From the IMG/VR virus record IMGVR_UViG_2718218126_000004: a stretch of 45,714 nt of DNA, one strand, 5' to 3'. Below the pieces are notes generated by a model. It saw only the letters and a program-made list of their open reading frames with translations, was not told the DNA's origin and did no database searches. Shown piece by piece: positions 1 through 34,129 of the stretch (positions within the stretch are counted from its first letter, which is position 1; every line of letters begins with the position of its first letter). A program made the translations under genes and the position numbers. The DNA comes from a virus. Taxonomy: Duplodnaviria; Heunggongvirae; Uroviricota; Caudoviricetes.

Positions 1-155
1 CTAGATGTAGAACTGTGTGGTGACGGTCTTCCAGCTATTCGGCTCCTGCTGTATTGAAGCATACCAGGCTATTTCAATATCGCTATGCTGCGGCAGCATT
101 TAACCCCTTGTAATTCATTGCCATAATTGATTTAATTCACAAATAAAACTATAAC

Positions 156-824
156 ATGGTGAAATTAATGAAAAAAAACACAGATGATGGGGCTAAAATT
201 TACACACCACTTACCCTAAAGCTTTATGACTGGTGGGTTTTGGGAGTATCAAATCGGCTTGCATGGGGATGTCCTACAAAGGAACACCTTCTTCCACACT
301 TTCTGGAACATTTAGGTAACAACCATCTGGATATTGGTGTTGGAACTGGGTTTTACCTTACTCACGTACCTGAGAGTAGTCTGATATCTTTAATGGATTT
401 GAACGAAGCTAGCCTGAACGCGGCATCTACAAGGGCTGGGGAATCAAAAATTAAACATAAAATTAACCATGATGTTTTTGAACCTTATCCCGCGGCGTTA
501 CATGGTCAATTTGATTCCATTTCCATGTTTTACCTTCTTCACTGCCTGCCTGGAAATATATCTACAAAAAGCTGTGTAATACGCAATGCGGCGCAGGCCT
601 TAACTGACGATGGAACTCTATACGGAGCCACAATTCTTGGCGATGGAGTTGTGCACAATAGCTTCGGTCAAAAACTGATGCGCATTTACAATCAGAAAGG
701 CATCTTTTCAAACACAAAAGATTCCGAAGAAGGCTTAACACATATACTCTCAGAGCATTTCGAGAATGTTAAAACCAAGGTTCAAGGTACTGTAGTAATG
801 TTTTCCGCTTCAGGGAAAAAATAG
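156..824 (+). CDS. Class I SAM-dependent methyltransferase (AT-rich cargo gene; start may be the ATG at 168)
   Basis: 222-aa ORF with a glycine-rich motif I (LDIGVGTGFY) typical of Rossmann-fold SAM methyltransferases; markedly AT-rich relative to the phage structural genes; hairpin plus T-run just downstream. Confidence 0.6.
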   Translation: MVKLMKKNTDDGAKIYTPLTLKLYDWWVLGVSNRLAWGCPTKEHLLPHFLEHLGNNHLDIGVGTGFYLTHVPESSLISLMDLNEASLNAASTRAGESKIKHKINHDVFEPYPAALHGQFDSISMFYLLHCLPGNISTKSCVIRNAAQALTDDGTLYGATILGDGVVHNSFGQKLMRIYNQKGIFSNTKDSEEGLTHILSEHFENVKTKVQGTVVMFSASGKK

Positions 825-831
825 CATCCAA

Positions 832-870
832 CCGCAGCACGTTCTTGCATAAGGCGTGTCTGCGGTTTTT
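832..870 (+). terminator. Putative rho-independent terminator downstream of the methyltransferase
   Basis: Inverted repeat ccgcagcacg...cgtgtctgcgg (832-865) followed by TTTTT (866-870). Confidence 0.35.
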
Positions 871-1371
871 CAACTATTCAGATACATCACTCCCATCACA
901 TTCATTCCTCCGCATCATAGGCATATAGGCTATATCACCTTGATATTTTTCTTCTTCAGATAAAAACTGTTATCTATGTATACTTTTAAACCCAATCCGT
1001 GTAGAGTCTCTGCATAAGATAGTTTGCAGTTGCCACTTCAGCTTGCGCCATAAACCGCCTGATTTTTGCTGCCACCTGTTAGCATTCCTGTATACCTGAA
1101 ACGACAATGTTTATCTACGAACTTTAAGAACCCCCAGGATAAAAATTGTCAACTATATCATATATAACACATTACTAATTCGAGGCTATATGAACAGCAT
1201 ACTGATAATCACTTCGCTCCTTATCATATTCAGCATTTTTAGTCATGCGCTAATAAAATTAGGGATTGGCATATCCAATAACCCAGACAAAACCGATGTA
1301 TAAGTCAACATATCCTGAATCAGACATACAATATCGCAATGAAAATCAATAATATTTTAAGGAATATCTTC

Positions 1372-1605
1372 ATGAAATCAAAAGACACCCTAAAGTGGTT
1401 CCCTGCGCAGCTTCCTGAAGTAAGAATTATCCTAGGGGATGCTGTAGTGGAAGTAGCAAAACAGGGAAGACCTATCAATACCAGAACATTGCTTGATTAC
1501 ATTGAAGGAAACATAAAGAAAAAATCATGGCTGGATAACAAAGAATTATTACAAACAGCGATATCAGTTCTTAAAGACAACCAAAATTTAAATGGTAAAA
1601 TGTAA
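1372..1605 (+). CDS. ynaE: YnaE/YdfK-family small prophage protein (cold-shock associated)
   Basis: 77-aa product from the internal ATG (MKSKDTLKWFPAQLPEVRIILGDAVVEVAKQGRPINTRTLLDYIEGNIKKKSWLDNKELLQ...) matches my recollection of E. coli K-12 YnaE/YdfK; preceded by a long AT-rich untranslated region. Confidence 0.6.
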   Translation: MKSKDTLKWFPAQLPEVRIILGDAVVEVAKQGRPINTRTLLDYIEGNIKKKSWLDNKELLQTAISVLKDNQNLNGKM

Positions 1606-1921
1606 TATAATAAACTTACTTTTTTATCATTTTTCCACTTTAACAACATTTTGCTCCACTTTTCCACGACCAAACAACTTGAAATCTGGTTAAAATAACA
1701 CGCAACACTATTCTTCTTCCTTGAGTCCGCCCGGAACTCGAAAAACAAACCGAGTTAAAGCCATTTTTCACAAAATCGATTTTGGGTCTCACCAAAATTA
1801 CGGGGTTGCATACGCATTCGTTTATTTTCGAACGTGTACATACAAATATGCACAAACATAATCATAATTATTTTCTGAGATGCATTATGATATGAACACC
1901 AATTTCGTATAGAGTCTCACT

Positions 1922-2512
1922 ATGTCTCGAATTTTTGCTTACTGTCGGATATCAACGCTGGATCAGACCACCGAAAATCAACGCCGGGAAATCGAAAGTG
2001 CAGGTTTTAAAATCAAACCTCAGCAAATAATCGAAGAACACATTAGCGGCTCAGCAGCAACCAGTGAGCGTCCTGGTTTTAACCGGTTGCTTGCTCGCCT
2101 GAAATGTGGTGATCAATTGATTGTGACAAAACTGGATCGCCTTGGTTGTAATGCAATGGATATCAGGAAAACAGTGGAACAACTGACCGAAACAGGTATC
2201 AGAGTGCATTGCTTAGCATTGGGGGGCATTGACCTGACCAGTCCAACAGGAAAAATGATGATGCAAGTAATTTCAGCAGTCGCTGAATTTGAACGAGACC
2301 TTTTACTTGAACGCACTCATTCCGGGATAGTAAGAGCCCGCGGCGCAGGGAAACGTTTTGGTCGACCACCTGTGTTAAATGAAGAACAGAAACAGGCGGT
2401 ATTCGAACGAATTAAGTCAGGTGTAAGTATAAGTGCCATTGCCCGGGAATTCAAAACCTCGCGGCAAACCATTTTAAGAGCCAAAGCAAAACTTCAGACA
2501 CCTGACATATAA
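1922..2512 (+). CDS. pin: Serine recombinase, Din-family DNA invertase (Pin)
   Basis: 196-aa ORF starting [20 protein letters not shown] with the resolvase/invertase catalytic N-terminus and C-terminal HTH; matches recalled PinR/PinQ/PinE of E. coli prophages; convergent with tfa. Confidence 0.9.
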
Positions 2513-2609
2513 AAAATAATCTCGGTGTGAGATGCTTTACGTCTTCCAAGCCCCCTTCCTTGCCGTAAATGGAAAGATACATCTAATTATAGAATTTATA
2601 TGTTTTACC

Positions 2610-3185
2610 CTACGGCAGTGCTGGCCATTCAATATCCTGTGCAGTTGACGTATCAACACGGTTCAGCAATACCCGATACTTTTTCCATGCTTCCAGCAAC
2701 GAGATTTCTTCCTCCGTTGCAATTTCCAGATCTGCAGCATCCTGAAGCGGCGCAATATGCTCACTGGCTACCTGCATCAGGTTGTTTTTTGTTTCTTCCG
2801 CCTCCCGGATCCGGAACAGTTTTTCTGCTTCCGTATCCTTCACCCAGGCTGTGCCGTTCCACTTCTGAAACTCCCCTTCCGGCGATAACCAGGTAACATT
2901 TTTCGGTAACGGACCGAGTTCAGAAATAAATAACGCGTCGCCGGAAGCCACGTCATAAACCGTTTTACCCCGATGATCTTCAACGAGATGCCACGATGCC
3001 TCATCACTGTTGAAAACAGCCACAAAGCCAGCAGGAATATCTGGTGGTGCAATATCGGTACTGTTTGCTGGCAGACCTGTATGAGGCGGAATATATGCGT
3101 CACCTTCACCAATAAATTCATTAGTTCCGGCCAGCAGATTATAAATTTTTATGGTCCGTGGTTGTTCACTCATTCTGAATGCCAT
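2610..3185 (-). CDS. tfa: Tail fibre assembly protein Tfa
   Basis: 191-aa ORF immediately downstream of stf with a 1-nt stop/start overlap (TAATG); N-terminus resembles lambda/Rac Tfa. Confidence 0.85.
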
Positions 3186-6100
3186 TATGCAAGCCTCACA
3201 ATATAGTTAAATGCGATGTTTTTGACGGTGTTTTCCGCGTTACCAGCAGCGTTAACGGTGATGGTGTGTCCATGTGAACCAATCGCAACGGAGTGCGTAT
3301 GAGCACCAATACCGACAGTATGCGCGTGTGCACCTGCAGATGCTGCTGTGCCGGACAGTGAATGGCTATGATTACCATCTGTACTGGTATTCGCTAACCA
3401 CCCCGTAGACATACCTACTGAGCCTTGTACACCCCAGGTATTTTGACCTGAGCTTGTATAACCATATTGATAAGTATCTTTAAAAACACTGGGGTTAAAT
3501 CGACGGCCATCTCTATGGCTGTGATTACCAGCTGCATTCGTGCTGCCACTTAAACTATGGGTATGCGCACCAGTGTTATTCGTGGATTTAGTGCCGTAAT
3601 CAAACGACGATGTGGTTTTCGTCCCCAAATCCGTACTGGATGCGCTGGCGCTGTGGGTATGCGATTTAATGCCATCCTGTTCCTGAGACAATACGGCACG
3701 ACCACTGGCGGGCTTGCCCTTAATCGTCCAGCCACGCAAATCAGGGATCACGCCTGACGGATAAGCGGCAGCAAGTTTCGGGTAGGCAGATTTGTCAAAA
3801 GTCTGCCCCTGCATCAGGGCATAACCAGACGGAACGGTATCTGATGGCCACGGGATTGGTGCGCCGACTGGGTAGCTTTCTGGTGGAAGATTTTTCGAGG
3901 TATAAACTTCTGCCCAGTCTTCCTCAAAACCATAGCCATCTCTTGAAGAACGGTAGAACAGACCACCATTTCTGTAATGCGCCTTCATCTGCAGGGTCCG
4001 GCAACTTCCGACTCCGGTATAGAAGTTAACCAGAATATAGCTGTCGCCAGAGCGGGTGACATTGTAAGCGCCTGATTCGGCATTCCAGGGAACGCCACCA
4101 TCCGCATCGGCATATGTATCCGTTGCCCTTCTGGCAAAAGCAGCCACATGCGCGGCGGTTAAAGTAATATCTTTGGAACCATCAAACTCAACACCAGAAA
4201 CCCGTCTTGGCGTTTGCAGCTTTGTTGCTGTTAATGCATTACCGTTCAGACTTGCGGACAGTTTGGTTCCAATAACCAGTTCGCCGGTTGCGTTATCAAT
4301 AGCAAACGGTCTTAATGTATTCCAGCCACCATAAACATCACCTTGATTGGTAAGCAGCAGGTAAGTTTTAGCGCCATCATTACGCCATAATGCCCCATAC
4401 TCCCCACCTATCATTCGAATCTGATTACCACCACGCGCTACAATTTCGTCTGTGGCAAAAAGTTTTTTGCACGACAAGTTATCGTTAACGATTAACGAAT
4501 GAGACTCATAAAAACCACGCCCACTCTTAAAATCAAGGATAACGTCCGCCGCGATACATTCAGTCGCTGGATTTGTTGCCCCAAACTTATAGGTCGTATC
4601 ATTAACAACGAGATCAGCACCAGGTGCGGATATTGACAGGCCATCTTCGATAAACGCAAAAACAGGGAAAGCAGCGCCATCAACATAGAACACAGAGCGC
4701 AAATCATCGCCCTTATTACTCATCATTATTGAGTGGATGGCTCGTTCATTGTTTTGATATTGCCAGAACATTCCATAAGCATAACGCCCCCTGTCAGTCC
4801 AGCCACCAGGCATAACAAATCCGTTAAACTCGCAGTTATTCATCGGATCGCCTGCGGTTCGCGTTGCCGTGGTGATAATGACCCTTGATGCCAGTTCGCT
4901 TACTGAGCCAGCAGAACGCATAACAACAACAGGGTAATATTTTCCAGATGTTGCACCTGCAGGAGCGTTAACCCGCACATAACGCATACCACGCTTATCA
5001 GCAAAGTCTGTTTTACTGACCGCGTTAATGTTGTTCAGGAAGCGTCCCTTATCGGGTATATCAGCGCCGTTCTGGTCTTTCTGCAGACGTTTCTCTGCAT
5101 TGTCATAGGCTGATTTTACTGCCTTTGGCGTTGCCGCCAGCGTTTCAGACGTACTGTTGGTCGCACTGCTGAGCTGTACTATCCCCTTTTTCGTCGTACT
5201 TGCATCCTCAAGCGCCACGGCGGATGCAATATCCTCTGCCCGTTTTGCCGCTGTCTCGGCGCGCGTTGCCGCGGATTCCGCCGTACTTTTGCTCTGTGCT
5301 GCCGCCGTCGCACTGCCAGCTGCCTCTGTCGCCTTCGTGGATGCCGTCGTGGCGCTGCCCTTCGCTGCGGACGCTTGTCTGGTCGCCTCATCTTTTGAAG
5401 CAGACGCCGATGATGCCGATGACGCCGCCGAACTGGCGGACGATGCGGCAGCCGTTTTTGAGGATTCTGCGCTGGTTTCCGACGCTTTCGCGTTCGTCTC
5501 GGATGTCTTCGCTGCGGAAGCAGACCTTGCTGCTGCGCTGGCCTGTTCAGTGGCTTCGCCAGCCTTCGTTGTGGCTGTTGAAGCAGACGATGCGGCGCTT
5601 TCTGCCGATTTTCCGGCGGCGGTGGCACTGGCTGAGGCCTGCCCGGCACTTGTTGACGCGGCACTGGCAGACGACGCAGCCGCTGTTTTTGAGCCTGCCG
5701 CAGCCGAGGCGCTCTGTCCCGCTGCCGTTTCAGAAGACCTGGCGTTTGTCTCAGACGTCTTTGCCGCCTTCGCGGAATTGCCTGCCGCCGTTGCCGAGGA
5801 AGCGGCACTACTGGCGCTTGATGATGCGTTCGTTTCTGATGATTTCGCTGCCTCTTTTGAGGCCGCCGCATCCCGGGCTGAGGTGGCTGCTTCTGACGCC
5901 TTCGTGGTCGCGGCGGATGCAGAAGTGGCTGCTGATTGTTGTGACGCTGCCGCATTCGTTTCTGACGTTTTCGCCGCAGCGGCACTGGTGACCGCCGCGC
6001 TTTTTGAGGACTCTGCAGCGGCAGCACTTTTTTCCGCTTCAGTGGCCTTTGTTGATGCCGTTCCTGCGCTGGAAGACGCTGACTGAGCCGACGAAGCGGC

Positions 6101-6589
6101 CTGTCCGGCTGACGTGCTGGCTGCGCGTGCTGAGCCTGCAGCATCAGTCGCATGGGTTGCCGCCTCACGGGCTGATGTGCCGGCATCGCTGGCTGACTTC
6201 TTCGCGGCTGCCGTGTTCTGTGCCACCGCGGACGCGTTACGCGCCACCTCTTCCACCATCAGTTCAAAACGGCGCAGTGCCTCAGGACGGGCATCATCCT
6301 CCGTCATGGCACCGAGAAAATCATTCAGCGTACCGGGTCGGGAATCTTCATACACGGTGATGGTCCCGGCATGTGACGGCGGGAATCCCTCCACCAACAG
6401 AATAACGCTGTACTGCCCGTACTCAACGTCCATGCTGTAACGCCCGGCTTCATCCGGATTTTCTGAGGCCAGCGTGTTCACCACCACCGTGGTGCTGTTA
6501 CGTTTTGCTTTCAGCTGGATTGTGCAGTTCTGTACCGGTTTTCCTGTGCCGTCTTTCAGTACACCTGAAATCTTTACTGCCATATTCAC
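3185..6589 (-). CDS. stf: Side tail fibre protein Stf (likely start at the ATG at 6583)
   Basis: About 1130-aa ORF; N-terminus [26 protein letters not shown] as in lambda Stf/StfR; long Ala/Ser/Thr-rich low-complexity shaft; C-terminal HxH repeats (GAHTHS, GNHSHS, GAHAHT, GSHGHT) typical of fibre-tip domains. Confidence 0.9.
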
Positions 6590-6590
6590 C

Positions 6591-6619
6591 CCACAAAAAA
6601 GCCCGCCTGAACCGGCGGG
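6591..6619 (-). terminator. Putative rho-independent terminator between lom and stf (minus strand)
   Basis: Hairpin gcccgcc-tgaacc-ggcgggc (6601-6619) followed on the minus strand by a T-run (plus-strand A-run 6595-6600). Confidence 0.4.
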
Positions 6620-6647
6620 CTGTCATAACACTGTGTTACCTGGCTAA

Positions 6648-7247
6648 TCAGAATTTATAACCGACACCCACGATGAAACCGTCAGTGCGCCAGTCACCAC
6701 TGCCGGAGCCTTCATAAGCAATATCAATGGCCACGGATTCGGTCGGGTTAAACTGCACGCCAGCCCCCCACGCCAGAGACGTGTTGCTGTGGCGACCGTC
6801 ATCACTTCCGGTCAGCACATCGTGCTTTTTCCCCTTGTTGTCAGTTACGCGAAGATAATCCCCGGAGAAAGTCGACACACGGCTGTAAGCTACACCCGCC
6901 ATCGCATACGCGCTGAACCATTCATTCACGCGCACAGACGGCCCCGCCATTACGCTGAACCAGCGGTTACGAACGGAATCTTCATGCCAGCGGGTATCGC
7001 TGTAACGGGTCAGCTGGCGATTCTTGTCTCCTGCATAGCTGAATGACGTCACCAGCCCCAGTGTGTCCGTAAACTCATAACGGTATTTCACGTTAATCCC
7101 GTTCAGATTATCGCTGCCGGGGACGTTCGTCGAGGCATGAAGATACCCCGCGCTCAGCGTGGACTGATGTTCAGATGCCCATGCAGGCGCACCGGATACG
7201 GCCAGACAAATGGCTGCGGACAAAATGGCGGCATAAAGTTTACGCAT
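6648..7247 (-). CDS. lom: Outer membrane protein Lom (Ail/Lom family), full-length copy
   Basis: 199-aa ORF with signal peptide and C-terminal AYEGSGSGDWRTDGFIVGVGYKF as in lambda Lom; sits between J and stf as in lambda. Confidence 0.9.
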   Translation of the reverse strand: MRKLYAAILSAAICLAVSGAPAWASEHQSTLSAGYLHASTNVPGSDNLNGINVKYRYEFTDTLGLVTSFSYAGDKNRQLTRYSDTRWHEDSVRNRWFSVMAGPSVRVNEWFSAYAMAGVAYSRVSTFSGDYLRVTDNKGKKHDVLTGSDDGRHSNTSLAWGAGVQFNPTESVAIDIAYEGSGSGDWRTDGFIVGVGYKF

Positions 7248-7270
7248 AATTACCTCTCGCTTTTCTGCAA

Positions 7271-7296
7271 TAAAAAAGGCACCATTTCTGGTGCCC
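7271..7296 (-). terminator. Putative rho-independent terminator downstream of the J copy, upstream of lom
   Basis: Hairpin aaggcacc-atttct-ggtgccctt with adjacent A-run on the plus strand (T-run on the minus strand). Confidence 0.4.
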
Positions 7297-7316
7297 TTAT
7301 ATGGGTTATAACAATT

Positions 7317-9895
7317 TCAACGAATACTGATGCCGGAAGCGGCTTTTTTGGTCACAATCACCGTACAGTCGGTGATATTGCCTGCCCCCTGATTGCCTTT
7401 CTGGAAAATCTTAAACTCCAGAGTGACGCTTCCCCTGCCACTCGGCATATCAATAACTGCACTGTAACTACCGGGAATGGCCCCTTTAGTTTCTCTGGAT
7501 GCGATTAATACGCCGTTTTTGCGAACTTCAAAACCATAACCCGTGTATCGCGTGCCTCCTGGGTTATTTCCGCTCCCCGGATCGTCATACGCTATACCGT
7601 TAAAAATAATGGGCGGAATAATAATCTGGCGGTCAAAGTTATGATCATCGCTGATGGTGACTGTAACCGTACCATTTGGTGTTTCCGTGTTACCCCACGT
7701 ACCGACTTTTTTCGGGAAGGCTTTTGATACAGCTTTAACGAAATCTCCTCTGACCTGGGTCGCCTCCAGCATGCCCTTAATCGTACAGTTCTGGTTAATC
7801 GTGACATTGTTGAGCGTTCCTGAGTTCGCATTCACACTGCCACTGATATCCGCATTTTTCGCCGTCAGTCTCCCGTCTGATGTCAGGGAAAATGCCGGAG
7901 GATTACCGCCGCTGGTAATGGTGGGGGCCGTCAGGCGTTTCAGGAACACTTCATTCATGAATATCTGATCGCCCTGACCAACAAACATCGGCTTTGTGTT
8001 GCCATTCGCAGGATTAATCATCGCAATCCTGTCTGCTGCCAGCAGCACCTGACTCTGCATGCCGTCAGGGGTGTTCTCAATACCGGCACCGATACCCGCA
8101 ATATAAAGGCGTCCGTCCTGCATCTGCTGCAGCTTCACTGCCCACATGCTGTTCAGGTTATTATTTGTATCAACCTGAACCTTCTGTATCTGCTGGATCG
8201 CTGCACTCTGGTCTTCCAGTTTCTTATTGACGGTCTGTGTTATTTCATTGCTGACATCCGTTATGGACGTCCTGATTTCAGTCAGGTCAGGCGCAAGCTG
8301 ACCGTTATCAATCTGCGTCCACAGCTCCTGAGCCAGATGGGTTTTCCCTATCTCGCCTTTGAAAAAATCCAGATAGCCTGATGCATCATCACTCGGCTGA
8401 CCGACAGCCTCCACGAATGCCGATTTGCCAACGGTGTTCACACTGCGAACGTAAAAATAATAATCATGGCCCGGTTTGATATTGATACTGGCGGCTATCC
8501 AGTACAGTGCCGTACCAAGATAACGCGCGCTGGTTTCAACCTGCCTGATATCCGCAATCCGTTTTTCCGAGAACCAGAACTCAAACTGTACCGTCGGGTC
8601 ATAAACCGCAAGATGCGGCGTGGCGGTTATCTGAAAATAGCCCGGCGTCAGCTCAATCCGCGACGGCGCTGCCGGTGCGGCAATCCGGAACGATACCGAC
8701 GCCGGATCGCCCTGCTGCCCCCACGCATTTACCGCCCGGACTGTCAGCCTGTAGTTCCCCAGCGCCAGTTGCCTGAAGCGGTATGTGGTTTCCGTCGTCC
8801 GGGCCGTGCTGACCAGCCGCTCACTGCCGTCATCCGCTGTTACGGTCAGACGGAGCAGGAAGCTCACGCCCTTCACCACCTTCGGCGTGTCCCAGCGGGC
8901 CAGCACCTGGTATTCCCCGCTGTCTGCGGTGACTTCTGCGGTCAGGTGCTGCACCGCTGGCGGCGTGACACCATTTACCGTGCCGCTCTGGTCGCCGTCA
9001 AAGTGCGCCCCGTTATCCACGATGGCCTCTTTTTCCGGTACATGCTGCACGGCGGTGATGGCATACGTGCCGTCGTCGTTCTCACGGATACTCACGCAGC
9101 GGAACAGGCGCTGGCGCAACGTCGGCAGCTTCAGCCCCCATACGCTGTATTCAGCAACGCCGTCAGGAACACGGCTCACTTTTACCTTCACGCCGTCGGT
9201 GACGGACTGGACCTCCACGCTGACCGGATTGCCACTTCCGTCAACCAGGCTTATCAGCGTGGTACCGGAGGATGGCAGCGTGATTTCACGGTCGAGCGTC
9301 AGCGTCCGGGTCTGGCTGTTCACCGCCAGCACGCGCCCGCCGGTGCTGATACCCGCATAGTCATCATCGCAGATTTCAATGACATCCCCCGGTACATGGC
9401 GAAGCCCTTCCGCACCCACGCTGAAGTCCACGGTCTGCGTTTCCAGCAGTTCCGTTTTAATCAGCCACAGCCCGGCGCGGTGCGCCTGCCCCCGACTGGT
9501 ACAGCCAAAGGCATCCATCTTCGTGACGTTACGACCGTAACGGGCAATGGCCTGCGTGTCCTCCACAAGCTCTGTCGCCGTCTCCCAGCCGTTATCCGGG
9601 TCAATCCAGTTCACCTCAACGGCATTATGGCGGTCCTTCAGGGCGCTGAAGCTGTAGCGGAACGGCGCGCCATCATCCGGCATCACCACATTACTGCGGT
9701 TATAGGTCCACACCTTATCTGATGGTCGGTCCTGCACGAACGTCAGCGTCTGCCCGTTCCATACCGGCATACAGCGCATCGCAGAGCAGAAATCACTGAG
9801 CACATCCCACGCCTTGCGCTGTGTGGTCAGGTACGCATTACAGGTGATGCGCGGCTCCGTGCCGCCAAAACCGTCCGGCACCGACTGATCGCAAT
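7317..9895 (-). pseudogene. 5'-truncated duplicate of tail tip gene J (lacks roughly the first 306 codons)
   Basis: ORF 7317-9881 translates to the C-terminal ~854 aa of J; its upstream end fuses abruptly at 9895/9896 to sequence from inside lom; no plausible start or RBS. Confidence 0.8.
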
Positions 9896-10254
9896 GCTAC
9901 ACCCGCCATCGCATACGCGCTGAACCATTCATTCACGCGCACAGACGGCCCCGCCATTACGCTGAACCAGCGGTTACGAACGGAATCTTCATGCCAGCGG
10001 GTATCGCTGTAACGGGTCAGCTGGCGATTCTTGTCTCCTGCATAGCTGAATGACGTCACCAGCCCCAGTGTGTCCGTAAACTCATAACGGTATTTCACGT
10101 TAATCCCGTTCAGATTATCGCTGCCGGGGACGTTCGTCGAGGCATGAAGATACCCCGCGCTCAGCGTGGACTGATGTTCAGATGCCCATGCAGGCGCACC
10201 GGATACGGCCAGACAAATGGCTGCGGACAAAATGGCGGCATAAAGTTTACGCAT
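9896..10254 (-). pseudogene. 3'-truncated duplicate of lom (first ~119 codons) fused out of frame to the J fragment
   Basis: ORF 9838-10254 matches full lom for ~120 aa (MRKLYAAILSAAICLAVSGAPAWASEHQ...YAMAGVA) then diverges at the junction. Confidence 0.8.
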
Positions 10255-10277
10255 AATTACCTCTCGCTTTTCTGCAA

Positions 10278-10303
10278 TAAAAAAGGCACCATTTCTGGTG
10301 CCC
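10278..10303 (-). terminator. Duplicate copy of the J-lom intergenic hairpin terminator
   Basis: Same sequence as 7271-7296 at +3007 bp. Confidence 0.4.
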
Positions 10304-10323
10304 TTATATGGGTTATAACAATT

Positions 10324-13300
10324 TCAACGAATACTGATGCCGGAAGCGGCTTTTTTGGTCACAATCACCGTACAGTCGGTGATATTGCCTGCCCCCTGAT
10401 TGCCTTTCTGGAAAATCTTAAACTCCAGAGTGACGCTTCCCCTGCCACTCGGCATATCAATAACTGCACTGTAACTACCGGGAATGGCCCCTTTAGTTTC
10501 TCTGGATGCGATTAATACGCCGTTTTTGCGAACTTCAAAACCATAACCCGTGTATCGCGTGCCTCCTGGGTTATTTCCGCTCCCCGGATCGTCATACGCT
10601 ATACCGTTAAAAATAATGGGCGGAATAATAATCTGGCGGTCAAAGTTATGATCATCGCTGATGGTGACTGTAACCGTACCATTTGGTGTTTCCGTGTTAC
10701 CCCACGTACCGACTTTTTTCGGGAAGGCTTTTGATACAGCTTTAACGAAATCTCCTCTGACCTGGGTCGCCTCCAGCATGCCCTTAATCGTACAGTTCTG
10801 GTTAATCGTGACATTGTTGAGCGTTCCTGAGTTCGCATTCACACTGCCACTGATATCCGCATTTTTCGCCGTCAGTCTCCCGTCTGATGTCAGGGAAAAT
10901 GCCGGAGGATTACCGCCGCTGGTAATGGTGGGGGCCGTCAGGCGTTTCAGGAACACTTCATTCATGAATATCTGATCGCCCTGACCAACAAACATCGGCT
11001 TTGTGTTGCCATTCGCAGGATTAATCATCGCAATCCTGTCTGCTGCCAGCAGCACCTGACTCTGCATGCCGTCAGGGGTGTTCTCAATACCGGCACCGAT
11101 ACCCGCAATATAAAGGCGTCCGTCCTGCATCTGCTGCAGCTTCACTGCCCACATGCTGTTCAGGTTATTATTTGTATCAACCTGAACCTTCTGTATCTGC
11201 TGGATCGCTGCACTCTGGTCTTCCAGTTTCTTATTGACGGTCTGTGTTATTTCATTGCTGACATCCGTTATGGACGTCCTGATTTCAGTCAGGTCAGGCG
11301 CAAGCTGACCGTTATCAATCTGCGTCCACAGCTCCTGAGCCAGATGGGTTTTCCCTATCTCGCCTTTGAAAAAATCCAGATAGCCTGATGCATCATCACT
11401 CGGCTGACCGACAGCCTCCACGAATGCCGATTTGCCAACGGTGTTCACACTGCGAACGTAAAAATAATAATCATGGCCCGGTTTGATATTGATACTGGCG
11501 GCTATCCAGTACAGTGCCGTACCAAGATAACGCGCGCTGGTTTCAACCTGCCTGATATCCGCAATCCGTTTTTCCGAGAACCAGAACTCAAACTGTACCG
11601 TCGGGTCATAAACCGCAAGATGCGGCGTGGCGGTTATCTGAAAATAGCCCGGCGTCAGCTCAATCCGCGACGGCGCTGCCGGTGCGGCAATCCGGAACGA
11701 TACCGACGCCGGATCGCCCTGCTGCCCCCACGCATTTACTGCCCGGACTGTCAGCCTGTAGTTCCCCAGAGCCAGTTGTGTGAAGCGGTAAGTGGTTTCC
11801 GTCGTCCGGGCCGTGCTGACCAGCCGCTCACTGCCGTCATCCGCTGCCACGGTCAGGCGAAGCATAAAGCTCACCCCCTTCACCACCTTCGGCGTGTCCC
11901 AGCGCGCCAGCACCTGATATTCCCCGCTGTCTGCGGTGACTTCGGCAGTCAGGTGCTGCACCGCTGGCGGCGTGACACCATTTACCGTGCCGCTCTGGTC
12001 GCCGTCAAAGTGCGCCCCGTTATCCACGATGGCCTCTTTTTCCGGTACATGCTGCACGGCAGTGATGGCATACGTGCCGTCATCGTTCTCACGGATACTC
12101 ACACAGCGAAACAGGCGCTGACGCAGTGTCGGCAGCTTCAGCCCCCACACGCTGTATTCGGCTATTCCGTCAGGAACCCGGCTCACTTTCACCTTCATGC
12201 CGTCGGTGACGGACTGGACCTCCACGCTGACCGGATTGCCACTTCCGTCAGCCAGGCTTATCAGCGTGGTGCCGGAGGATGGCAGCGTGATTTCACGGTC
12301 GAGCGTCAGCGTCCGGGTCTGGCTGTTCACCGCCAGCACGCGACCACCGATGCTGATACCAGCATAGTCATCATCGCAGATTTCAATAACATCGCCCGGT
12401 ACATGGCGAAGCCCTTCTGCGCCCACACTGAAATCCACGGTCTGCGTCTCCAGCAGCTCCGTTTTAATCAGCCACAGCCCGGCGCGGTGTGCCTGCCCCC
12501 GGCAGGTACAGCCAAAGGCATCCATCTTCGTAACATTACGACCGTAACGGGCAATGGCCTGCGTATCTTCAACAAGCTCTGTCGCCGTCTCCCAGCCGTT
12601 GTTCGGGTCAATCCAGTTCACCTCAACGGCATTATGGCGGTCCTTCAGGGCGCTGAAGCTGTAGCGGAACGGCGCGCCATCATCCGGCATCACCACATTA
12701 CTGCGGTTATAGGTCCACACCTTATCCGACGGTCGGTCCTGCACGAACGTCAGCGTCTGCCCGTTCCATACCGGCATACAGCGCATCGCCGAGCAGAAAT
12801 CACTGAGCACATCCCACGCCTTGCGCTGTGTGGTCAGGTACGCATTACAGGTGATGCGCGGCTCCGTGCCGCCAAAGCCGTCCGGCACTGACTGGTCGCA
12901 GTACTGGCCGATGACATACAGCGCCCATTTGTCCACATCCGCCGCACCAAGACGTTTCCCCATGCCGTAGCGCGGATGGGTCAGCATATCCCACAGACAC
13001 CAGGCCATGTTGTTGCTGTATGCTGGCTTAAACGTTCCGTCCCAGATACCGCTGTATTGCCGCGTCTGCGGGTTATAGTTCGACGGCACCTGCAGAATGC
13101 GCCCGCGCAGATGATAATTACGGCTCACCTGCTGGCTGCCGAACTGCTCCGAATCCACCTGCACGCCGACCAGTGCCGTGTTCGGGTAGCACTGTTTCAC
13201 ATCGATGATTTCGGTGTATGACGACCAGAGCGTTTTGTTCTGCAGCTGGTCTGTGGTGCTGTCCGGCGTCATCCTGCGCATCCGTATATTGAACGGGCGC

Positions 13301-13821
13301 GGCGGCAGGTTACCCACCACCACCGAGGCCAGATACTGCGAGGTGGTTTTGCCCTTAATGGTGATGTCTTTTTCCGTCACCCAGCCACCATTACGCTGGA
13401 TCTGAACCAGCAGGCGGACTTCCGACGGATTCCGGTCCCCCTTTGAGGTGGTTTCCACCAGTGCCTGCACGCCGAAGGTAAAGCGCAGACGGTCGATGTT
13501 TGCAGACGTAATGGTGCGGGTGATCGGCGTGTCATATTTCACTTCCGTACCCAGCACCGTCTCGGAGCCGGAGGATTCAAACCCCTCCGGCGGTGTCTGC
13601 TCCTGCTCACCGGCACGGAACACCACCGTGACACCGGAGATGTTGGTATTCCCCTCAGTGTCCAGCACCGGCGTACTGTTCAGCAGCACGCTTTTTAATC
13701 CATCCACCGGACCTTCAACCGGCCCTTCGCTGATGGCATCGATCACACTCAGCAACTGCGTGGACTTCAGGTTGTCCTTCGCTTCGCGCGGGGTATGCCC
13801 CTTACTGCTTCCTTTACCCAT
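10324..13821 (-). CDS. J: Tail tip / host specificity protein J (central tail fibre)
   Basis: 1165-aa ORF starting [34 protein letters not shown], matching recalled lambda gpJ over the N-terminal portion; C-terminal receptor-binding region differs from lambda. Confidence 0.95.
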
Positions 13822-13881
13822 TCCTCACGCTCCATAAATGACAAAACCGCCCGCAGGCGGTTTCACATAAAACATTTTGCA

Positions 13882-14553
13882 TCAGCGACCAATCACCACA
13901 ACCTGACCACCGTCCCCTTCGTCTGCCGTGCTGATCTCCTGAGAAACCACGCGAGACCCCACGCGCATTTCCCCGTACAGAACAGGCAGAACATTGCCCT
14001 GGGCAACCATGTTATCCAGTGAGGAGAAATAGGTGTTCTGCTTACCGTTATCCGTTGTCTGTGTACGGGGAGTTCTGGCTTTCGGTGCCAGCATCTGCGC
14101 CACACCACCGAGCACCATACTGGCACCGAGAGAAAACAGGATGCCGGTCATACCACCGGCCCCAATGGCTGCCCCCCATGCTGCAAGGGTGGCTCCGGCG
14201 GTAAAGAATGATCCGGCAATGGCGGCAGCCCCCAGGACAATCTGGAATACGCCACCTGACTTGGCCCCGGCGACTCTGGGAACAATATGAATCACAGCGC
14301 CATCAGGCAGAGTCTCATGTAACTGCGCCGTTAACCCGGACGTGCTGACGTCCCGCCCGGCAATCCGTACCTGATACCAGCCGTCGCTCAGTTTCTGACG
14401 AAACGCCGGGAGCTGTGTGGCCAGTGCCCGGATGGCTTCAGCCCCCGTTTTCACACGAAGGTCGATGCGGCGACCAAATCGTTGTAAATCCCCGTAAAGG
14501 CAGATGCGCGCCATGCCCGGTGACGCCAGAGGGAGTGTGTGCGTCGCTGCCAT
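13882..14553 (-). CDS. I: Tail tip assembly protein I
   Basis: 223 aa, same length as lambda gpI; overlaps K by 103 nt as in lambda; glycine-rich hydrophobic C-terminus. Confidence 0.9.
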   Translation of the reverse strand: MAATHTLPLASPGMARICLYGDLQRFGRRIDLRVKTGAEAIRALATQLPAFRQKLSDGWYQVRIAGRDVSTSGLTAQLHETLPDGAVIHIVPRVAGAKSGGVFQIVLGAAAIAGSFFTAGATLAAWGAAIGAGGMTGILFSLGASMVLGGVAQMLAPKARTPRTQTTDNGKQNTYFSSLDNMVAQGNVLPVLYGEMRVGSRVVSQEISTADEGDGGQVVVIGR

Positions 14554-15194
14554 TTGTCGGTGTACCTCTCTCGTTTGCTCAGTTGTTCAGGAATATGGTG
14601 CAGCAGCTCGCCGTCGCCGCAGTAAATTGCGGCGTGATTCGGCACCGATGAACCAAAACAGCACAGCAGCACATCGCCCGGCTGTGCCGCTGACAACGGC
14701 ACCTGATACAGCCCCGTCGCCTCCAGATTATCCAGATAGAGATTCTGGCCGTTACGCCACCAGTCATCCTCACGATGAAAATCCGGCATCTCAATCCCCG
14801 CCAGATGATAAGCATCCCGGAACAGTGTGTAACAGTCCGTCACACCGTGCTCAAAGCGCCGCCCGGTGAGATGCGGCACACAGCGGAACTTATGAATCGT
14901 CCCCCGGCAGACCAGCCACCACGGCAAATCACTCTGCACCTGCAGCCGCCGGTCGGCCTCACTCAGCCAGGGTAGACCACCGGGGTGGCTGTGGACCAGC
15001 GCCACAATCTCACCCTGTCGAACTGCCTGCAGCCAGTCTTCCGGCGACATACGGAAATACGCCTCCGGCTCACCGGAGATATTCACGCAGGGGAAATATC
15101 TTTCCCCCTCCGGCGTGCTTACCACGAAGCCGCACGACTCCGCTGGCGCACATCGCCGGGCGTGCGCCAGAATCGCTGATTCTGTCTGTGTCAT
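14451..15194 (-). CDS. K: Tail tip assembly protein K (MPN/JAMM plus NlpC/P60-like domains)
   Basis: 247-aa ORF MTQTESAILAHARRCAPAESCGFVVSTPEG...; JAMM-like motif ALVHSHPGGLPWLSEAD; as I recall, lambda K is annotated from an internal Met 48 codons downstream (about 15050). Confidence 0.85.
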   Translation of the reverse strand: MTQTESAILAHARRCAPAESCGFVVSTPEGERYFPCVNISGEPEAYFRMSPEDWLQAVRQGEIVALVHSHPGGLPWLSEADRRLQVQSDLPWWLVCRGTIHKFRCVPHLTGRRFEHGVTDCYTLFRDAYHLAGIEMPDFHREDDWWRNGQNLYLDNLEATGLYQVPLSAAQPGDVLLCCFGSSVPNHAAIYCGDGELLHHIPEQLSKRERYTDKWQRRTHSLWRHRAWRASAFTGIYNDLVAASTFV

Positions 15195-15897
15195 GGGATT
15201 TACTGCGAAAGTTTGTTATGGAAAGGAAGCCGCCAAAGTTGCCGACGTTATTGCGGAACTTACAACCGCTCAGGCATTTGCTGCATTTATCCTTCGTGAT
15301 ATCGGACGTCGGCTGGTCATATTCATCCGCGACAGCCGGACCGCTATAACCGCACTCGTCACCGCGATAGGTCCAGGTGCAGGTGTTGGCCAGCATGATA
15401 CGTCCCGGAAAAACAGCGCCATCCGTTTCCGTCGGCGTGGACAGTACAAAGGAGGCACTCACCGCGCTCAGTTCGCTGCACTGCTCAATGCGCCAGCGGC
15501 TGATCACCTCCTGCTCCGGATCGGCGTAACTGTTTCCGTTGACGAAGTTCACCGCATCCAGAAAACGGGCGTAAACCTTACGCCGGACCACCGTTCCGCC
15601 GACCAGACTCTGCATATCTTCCGCCATCCCGGTGACCATACCGTACAGGTTAGAAACCGTCAGCGTGGGGCGCGTACTGGTGCCTTTGCCATTCAGTTCA
15701 AAACCGCTCCCCTGAATGGGATACGGCTGATACTGTCGCCCCTGCCAGGTGACCGGCTCACCTTTTTCGTTCTGCTCATTACAGAAAAAATAACGTTCTC
15801 CACCGACCTCTGTCAGGTCGATTTCCCAGAGCACCACGCTGGCCGACTGCTCCGCACGGGTGCATTCATTCAGTGTTTCCTGCCGGATATCCTGCAT
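15070..15897 (-). CDS. L: Tail tip assembly protein L, with an apparent C-terminal frameshift that extends the ORF into K
   Basis: First ~227 aa match recalled lambda gpL (MQDIRQETLNECTRAEQSASVVLWEIDLTEVGGERYFF... Cys cluster CSKCLSGC); the expected stop TAA (15200-15202) is out of frame by one nucleotide, so the ORF reads 48 extra codons into K. Confidence 0.8.
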   Translation of the reverse strand: MQDIRQETLNECTRAEQSASVVLWEIDLTEVGGERYFFCNEQNEKGEPVTWQGRQYQPYPIQGSGFELNGKGTSTRPTLTVSNLYGMVTGMAEDMQSLVGGTVVRRKVYARFLDAVNFVNGNSYADPEQEVISRWRIEQCSELSAVSASFVLSTPTETDGAVFPGRIMLANTCTWTYRGDECGYSGPAVADEYDQPTSDITKDKCSKCLSGCKFRNNVGNFGGFLSITNFRSKSHDTDRISDSGARPAMCASGVVRLRGKHAGGGKIFPLREYLR

Positions 15898-33031: not shown

Positions 33032-34129
33032 ATGAAAAAATTAACAGTGGCAATTTCTGCTGTAGCTGCATCAGTACTGATGGCGATGTCTGCTCAGGCA
33101 GCTGAAATTTATAATAAAGACAGTAACAAGCTGGATCTGTACGGGAAAGTTAATGCTAAGCACTACTTCTCCTCTAATGATGCAGATGATGGTGATACTA
33201 CTTATGCCCGTCTTGGCTTCAAAGGTGAAACCCAAATCAACGATCAACTGACTGGTTTCGGTCAGTGGGAATATGAATTCAAAGGCAACCGCGCTGAATC
33301 TCAAGGTTCCTCCAAAGACAAAACCCGTCTTGCATTTGCAGGCCTGAAATTCGGTGACTACGGCTCAATCGATTACGGCCGTAACTACGGTGTAGCATAC
33401 GACATCGGTGCGTGGACTGACGTTCTGCCAGAATTCGGTGGCGATACCTGGACCCAAACAGATGTGTTCATGACTGGTCGCACCACTGGTGTTGCAACCT
33501 ATCGTAACAACGACTTCTTTGGTCTGGTTGATGGTCTGAACTTTGCTGCTCAGTACCAAGGCAAAAACGATCGTAGCGATTTCGATAACTACACCGAAGG
33601 TAACGGTGATGGCTTCGGTTTCTCTGCTACCTATGAATACGAAGGATTCGGTATCGGTGCAACTTATGCGAAATCTGATCGTACCGACACTCAAGTTAAT
33701 GCAGGGAAAGTTCTTCCTGAAGTATTTGCTTCCGGTAAAAATGCAGAAGTTTGGGCCGCAGGTCTGAAATATGACGCTAACAACATTTACCTGGCCACTA
33801 CCTATTCTGAAACCCAGAATATGACTGTATTTGCTGATCACTTCGTTGCTAATAAAGCTCAAAACTTCGAAGCTGTTGCACAATATCAGTTCGATTTCGG
33901 TCTGCGTCCGTCCGTTGCTTACCTGCAATCTAAAGGTAAGGATCTTGGAGTATGGGGCGATCAGGACTTAGTCAAATATGTTGATGTAGGTGCAACCTAT
34001 TACTTCAACAAAAATATGTCTACTTTCGTTGATTACAAAATCAACCTGCTTGACAAAAATGACTTCACTAAAGCACTCGGTGTAAGCACTGATGACATCG
34101 TTGCTGTAGGTCTGGTTTACCAGTTCTAA
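33032..34129 (+). CDS. nmpC: Outer membrane porin NmpC (OmpC/OmpF-type general porin), intact
   Basis: 365 aa with signal peptide [23 protein letters not shown], porin motifs and C-terminal VAVGLVYQF; opposite strand between Q and the lysis genes as in DLP12; uninterrupted here. Confidence 0.95.

Follow-up and report, generated by a model that had tools for sequence, protein, structure and literature searches.

Spontaneous tandem duplications were reportedly described in phage lambda in the 1970s by Bellett, Busse and Baldwin and by Emmons et al., and the tandem duplications of bacterial chromosomes, as reviewed by Reams and Roth, are likewise said to arise by illegitimate or microhomology recombination. 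Phage recombination systems have been found to recombine diverged DNA efficiently, contributing to the mosaicism of lambdoid phages (Martinsohn, Radman and Petit 2008, PMC2327257). Here, we analyzed a 45,714-nt virus record of IMG/VR (IMGVR_UViG_2718218126_000004; this whole stretch is referred to as the window), which is, on the evidence of its sequence, a lambda-like Escherichia coli prophage of the argU (DLP12)-site type and which carries a tandem duplication across the tail-tip attachment gene J and the adjacent gene lom. This prophage J-lom duplication is a further example of the known duplication class, combined with an ordinary lambdoid mosaic exchange. Its likely history is a tandem duplication by illegitimate recombination in an argU-site lambdoid prophage, followed by the exchange of a patch into the full-length J.

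The locus resembles the spontaneous duplications of lambda and bacterial chromosomes in that the copies are direct and lie head to tail, a single novel junction joins them without a flanking repeat and with a microhomology of a few nucleotides, the size is in the kilobase range, and instability by homologous recombination is to be expected. It differs from them in that it is found in a natural prophage sequence, not a laboratory-selected one, and in that one copy appears to have been patched by another allele. The patch, a sharp-edged 1.2-kb block of J with a divergence of ~5% that matches a different prophage type, corresponds in turn to what has been described for lambdoid tail-gene mosaicism (PMC2327257), except that the replaced ancestral segment is still adjacent here, so that both states can be read in one sequence.

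The first-pass annotation of the window had claimed two direct 3007-bp copies lying head to tail with a junction at 9895/9896 and had proposed a self-comparison as a check. When the window was compared with itself at an offset of 3007 bases, by which the copies are defined, the same 3007-bp block was obtained (copy A, 6889-9895; copy B, 9896-12902; Table 1), and outside 6889 and 12902 the identity dropped at once to background (~25%). The geometry of the claim was thus borne out, but the two copies are not identical. The stretch 6889-8732 is exactly equal to 9896-11739 over 1844 bp, covering the lom 5' part, the spacer and the last 472 J codons, and an exact repeat of this length is impossible by chance. 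By contrast, the remaining 1163 bp (8733-9895 versus 11740-12902) differ by 62 substitutions and no indels, which gives an identity of 94.7% in this part and of 97.9% overall and which had been missed.

The junction text, ...CTGATCGCAAT followed directly by GCTACACCCGCC..., reads as it had been quoted. The parental contexts at the join are GCAAT/GCTGGCC for J and TGTAA/GCTACAC for lom, with GCT common to both. The unit ends carry no longer repeat, the flanks are unrelated, and no Chi site was found in 6000-14000. The short GCT overlap without a repeat at the unit ends is therefore the signature of illegitimate, microhomology-level recombination and not of homologous unequal exchange between pre-existing repeats. 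Under the junction classification scheme of a recent preprint (10.64898/2026.05.22.727201), the adjacent direct copies, the single novel junction, the lack of an extended boundary repeat and the single-copy state of the relatives place the locus among tandem duplications by microhomology.

The divergent block represents two alleles of J. In a site-by-site table, the patch in the full-length J spanned from 11740/11770 to at least 12903, and 11741-12902 matched exactly (1162 of 1163 bases) the J of Qin-site prophages in the chicken strains YZMc17-1 and EC17CM12, which are isolates from China. From 12903 to ~13300 there are no informative sites, so the right end of the patch may lie anywhere in this interval and its apparent coincidence with the end of the repeat unit is uninformative. 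Between the two alleles, 48 codon differences are synonymous and 10 are non-synonymous, one of the latter being the junction codon; the nine internal amino-acid differences are spread over the Phage-tail_3 domain, the segment that follows it and the first Ig domain (residues 407-681). This 48:10 pattern is that of two functional alleles and not of decay or sequencing error.

To place the locus among its relatives, single-copy counterparts were compared with it. More than 3,400 complete E. coli genomes matched the J-lom region end to end, and the best-matching records listed spanned 4394 bp, which is the single-copy length. The exact side tail fibre (Stf) protein of the window, from its annotated ATG start, was encoded by seven contigs, and all those shown had one J followed by one lom. 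Furthermore, when the window without copy B was aligned over 16.6 kb with two of these contigs (GCA_045882455.1 and one of the Logan assembly of SRR13343677), only 11 sites differed, indicating that the ancestral state was a single J-lom with the copy-A allele. Three variants, at 7109, 8660 and 8667, were absent in the nearest relatives and present in both copies (twins at 10116, 11667 and 11674), and no complete genome carried the three together (best match, 99.8%). These shared private variants indicate that the two copies descend from one molecule of the lineage or were homogenized within it.

A 400-bp query was used to look for the junction in phage records and complete E. coli genomes, and exact or degenerate 25-33-mers were used for the other collections. 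The junction was absent from 5,426 complete E. coli genomes and 50,697 phage records, and likewise from IMG/VR, GTDB representative genomes and JGI metagenomes. No exact-protein record was found for the hybrid reading frame of the truncated lom (lom'), the fragment of J ('J) or the full-length J, and literature searches on the duplication gave nothing relevant, a hit on Pas small RNAs being unrelated.

As a first step of the likely history, a single illegitimate recombination between sister or replicating copies of the prophage lineage would have brought lom codon 119 and J codon 307 together at GCT, yielding the order J, lom', 'J, lom. Presumably as a second step, another lambdoid J allele, of the Qin-site prophage type, would have supplanted 1.2-1.6 kb in the centre of the upstream, full-length J through homologous or homeologous recombination, leaving the ancestral allele only in the truncated downstream copy. 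If RecA or a phage function mediated a crossover in the identical 1844 bp, a single J-lom would result, and the duplication should be unstable and short-lived unless a bottleneck has recently fixed it. Several points weigh against this history. The duplication was seen in a single sequence, and its junction is known from the assembled sequence. The exact mosaic full-length J was not found in the complete genomes (best match, 98.9%) or among ~135 further viral and metagenome loci containing the patch-boundary 52-mer, in which the best J match was 98.1% and none of which had the duplication. It is also somewhat unexpected that an unstable duplication would persist until a second recombination event. 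Finally, the bases at 8660 and 8667, ~70 nt from the divergent block, are those of the Qin-type donor, which hints at a more complex history, such as an extra conversion step between the copies or an import in one step; the order of duplication and patch given here is tentative.

An import in one step would mean that a segment of a related phage with the other J allele entered through one homologous crossover within the 5' region of J (12903 to ~13300) and through the illegitimate join of lom 119 to J 307. This could occur by homology-facilitated illegitimate recombination or unequal exchange between co-replicating phage genomes, and the locus would be a trapped intermediate of modular exchange. 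It is indeed the upstream copy that has the foreign allele, which continues into the shared 5' region, where informative sites are lacking; the displaced and truncated copy has the ancestral allele, and the donor-type bases at 11667 and 11674 adjoin the patch. However, the remaining 1844 bp, with a private lom variant, would have to be the same in donor and resident unless a later homogenization took place, and no such allele was found in the complete genomes or the ~135 further loci; the Qin-type alleles that match the patch diverge strongly in the J 3' part, with 49 mismatches in 10500-10999. We consider this route very unlikely. The broader claim that the locus is a captured modular-exchange intermediate in a receptor-recognition gene, with a foreign J brought in by one homologous and one illegitimate crossover, is quite unlikely as well. 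If it were true, the displaced ancestral segment would be a silent neighbour whose homologous resolution could give a new mosaic J or further chimeras, and the locus would be a direct snapshot of the origin of lambdoid tail-gene mosaics.

The uniqueness of the junction among all collections searched would also fit the possibility that a chimeric read or a mis-join made the lom/J junction, that reads of a co-resident lambdoid prophage supplied the divergent J, and that the real genome has a single J-lom. The hybrid reading frames without a database record point in the same direction, as do the many J homologues of E. coli genomes (median 2-3, up to 14-17), by which paralogues could be confused, and a few odd private changes elsewhere in the window, which may be residual errors: close to its end, gene L has a 1-nt deletion, and K contains a compensated indel cluster. 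On the other hand, a false join from a 3-nt overlap is impossible in k-mer or overlap assembly, so that reads containing the junction must exist. The differences between the copies are substitutions confined to a single block, each version is an exact natural allele, and this is not the pattern of a repeat artefact. In addition, the three private variants are common to both copies, the duplication is internal and not at a contig or window end, its junction has microhomology, and the rest of the window shows only a handful of differences from relatives over 40 kb. The first-pass annotation had held that the structure could equally be an assembly artefact; the natural alleles, shared variants and internal position disfavour such equal weight, and we regard an artefact as unlikely, while still giving it some weight.

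A rearrangement ending in the same part of lom was found in E. coli C3 (NZ_CP010119.1, locus L006, 3460-9480), where the order is H'-'J-lom' / 'J-lom' / 'H-M-L-K-I and the two truncated lom copies share their end point. What the two cases have in common is the joining of truncated lom copies to tail genes with internal truncations. They differ in that the breakpoints in C3 are at lom ~10062, J ~13463 and H ~17448 (window coordinates), with a larger unit and nested deletions. The C3 rearrangement is an independent event and resembles a larger tandem duplication with subsequent internal deletions. Thus, rearrangements that end in the lom 5' part occur in other assemblies, and the tail-lom region is not immune to them.

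With regard to the coding consequences, the gene order on the minus strand had been given in the first-pass annotation as a full J, a lom fragment of ~119 codons, a J without ~306 N-terminal codons and a full lom. The reading frames and the domain map agreed with this order, and the genes for the side tail fibre (stf) and tail fibre assembly (tfa) follow (6583-2610). Lambda gpJ consists of hub domains, two FNIII domains, a helical shaft, a central fibre and a receptor-binding domain (PMC11101478). Compared with it, the full-length copy here has the complete gpJ set of Pfam domains (FNIII-A, Phage-tail_3, Ig_J, Ig_J_second, Phage_Tail_Tip and Ig_GpJ_C) and qualifies as gpJ/TipJ, and the fragment begins at residue 307, inside the hub-domain part. 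'J accordingly lacks FNIII-A, residues 1-306 and the first part of the hub region, and does not show the complete gpJ domain series; it would be without the segment needed for hub assembly with gpL, gpM and gpI. The product of lom', which matches positions 1-124 of the 199 positions of the Ail_Lom profile and falls short of a full-length Ail/Lom protein, would consist of a signal peptide and about half of an eight-stranded barrel, and its folding is not expected. A Lom-J fusion protein was considered and rejected; the frames differ, the lom' frame stops after 19 codons, and an in-frame TAG is located immediately 5' of the junction codon of 'J. In the J-lom spacer (69 nt in copy B), a terminator-like hairpin is present in both copies, and no Rfam family matched within the repeat.

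Table 1. Coordinates of the duplication, its parts and the neighbouring tail-fibre genes in the window.
Feature	Position	Strand	Description
Copy A	6889..9895		lom 5' part, J-lom spacer and J codons 307-1165; near-identical to single-copy relatives
Copy B	9896..12902		Equal to the 3' 2.6 kb of intact J, spacer and truncated lom, by self-comparison
Central J segment of ancestral type, retained in the truncated copy	8733..9895		100% identical to GPEC617 and the nearest single-copy relatives
Foreign patch in full-length J	11740..12903		63 differences from the nearest relatives
Novel junction with 3-nt microhomology GCT	9896..9898		J homology up to 9898, lom homology from 9896
Intact J, tail-tip attachment gene, 1165 aa	10324..13821	-	All gpJ Pfam domains present
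lom' hybrid ORF	9838..10254	-	Lom residues 1-119, extended by 19 out-of-frame codons of J sequence before a stop
'J fragment, codons 307-1165	7317..9895	-	Mechanical ORF 9881-7317, 854 aa, GTG start
Intact lom, Ail/Lom outer-membrane beta-barrel, 199 aa	6648..7247	-	Profile match 1-199 of 199
Terminator-like hairpin with U-run, J-lom spacer of copy B	10282..10305	-	Fold -20.6 kcal/mol, z = -3.5
Identical terminator-like hairpin, spacer of copy A	7275..7298	-	Sequence match to the copy B hairpin
stf and tfa genes	2610..6583	-	Downstream of the duplication, 3 kb further from J

The second J segment could in principle be a stored host-range cassette, or 'J could yield a soluble receptor-binding protein if signals such as those of lom drove its expression in the lysogen. 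The 'J frame is open to its natural stop and retains the receptor-binding domain, and lom is expressed in lambda lysogens. However, the last 472 J codons, which include those for the tail-tip fibre and the C-terminal receptor-binding domain, do not differ by a single nucleotide between the copies, so that nothing is stored; no frame allows a fusion, no Shine-Dalgarno sequence is visible before the GTG at 9881, and the arrangement is absent from thousands of related prophages. Moreover, the repeats are direct, and inverted repeats were not detected in 1-7000 with a 12-nt seed. We therefore regard a functional arrangement as extremely improbable. The earlier proposal that the duplication could be a substrate for host-range switching was not supported, since identical receptor-binding parts provide no host-range diversity at the locus and a crossover between the copies has no outcome other than loss of the duplication or a reshuffled central region. 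On the same grounds, the host-range cassette was rejected, as was an invertible segment because of the direct repeats. The locus did not show the features of programmed diversification, whether as an invertible segment, a shufflon or a diversity-generating retroelement, and no reverse transcriptase was found among the six proteins scanned.

Taken together, the prophage would keep one intact J and one intact lom, with lom' and 'J as non-functional by-products, and on their reading frames neither fragment appears expressible as a functional protein. For annotation, this means that the extra "J" and "lom" calls are to be treated as fragments. If the duplication followed by patch exchange is real, it would represent an illegitimate tandem duplication and an allelic patch exchange between co-circulating lambdoid prophages in one natural prophage, and the ancestral and replaced tail-tip gene segments, standing side by side, would be a useful illustration of mosaic formation. 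The locus reveals no new mechanism, gene or host-range device and is an ordinary, probably short-lived structural variant.

At its argU site, E. coli GPEC617 has a complete lambdoid prophage that is collinear with the whole window, with an identity of 99.6-99.9% on both sides of the repeat. The first base of the window lies shortly outside the tail-fibre module, 7 nt past a tfa pseudogene of the host region, and its end (45714) coincides exactly with the integrase stop codon, which adjoins a tRNA-Arg in relatives. From these ends, the window is probably a provirus excerpt trimmed at gene boundaries and not a packaged genome. The element is ~45.7 kb with the duplication and 42.7 kb without it. 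Both forms fit within the packaging range of lambda (~38-51 kb).

Some further observations were made on the neighbouring genes. A serine recombinase gene of the Pin-like type (1922-2512, plus strand) adjoins tfa, as in invertible tail-fibre segments, and this segment may be fixed or may have sites too short for detection. Within the tail fibre assembly gene, a match to Rfam family IS009 was found (220.9 bits; 2644-2842, minus strand). In gene L (minus strand; 15897-15201 in relatives), the 1-nt deletion lies at 15218-15219, five codons before the gpL stop, and replaces the terminal NKLSQ of gpL by a 48-aa extension that overlaps gene K; it is absent in GPEC617 and the nearest relatives and may be either a genuine mutation or a sequencing error left uncorrected. 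The compensated indel cluster in gene K, which encodes a C40 peptidase, is located at 15018-15023 and results in E58V and M59R compared with all close relatives. Finally, an ORF of 365 aa (33032-34129, plus strand) is located between the Q-like antiterminator and the lysis genes; its counterpart in GPEC617 is annotated as a porin, and it is a cargo gene of the lysogenic-conversion type, like nmpC of DLP12.

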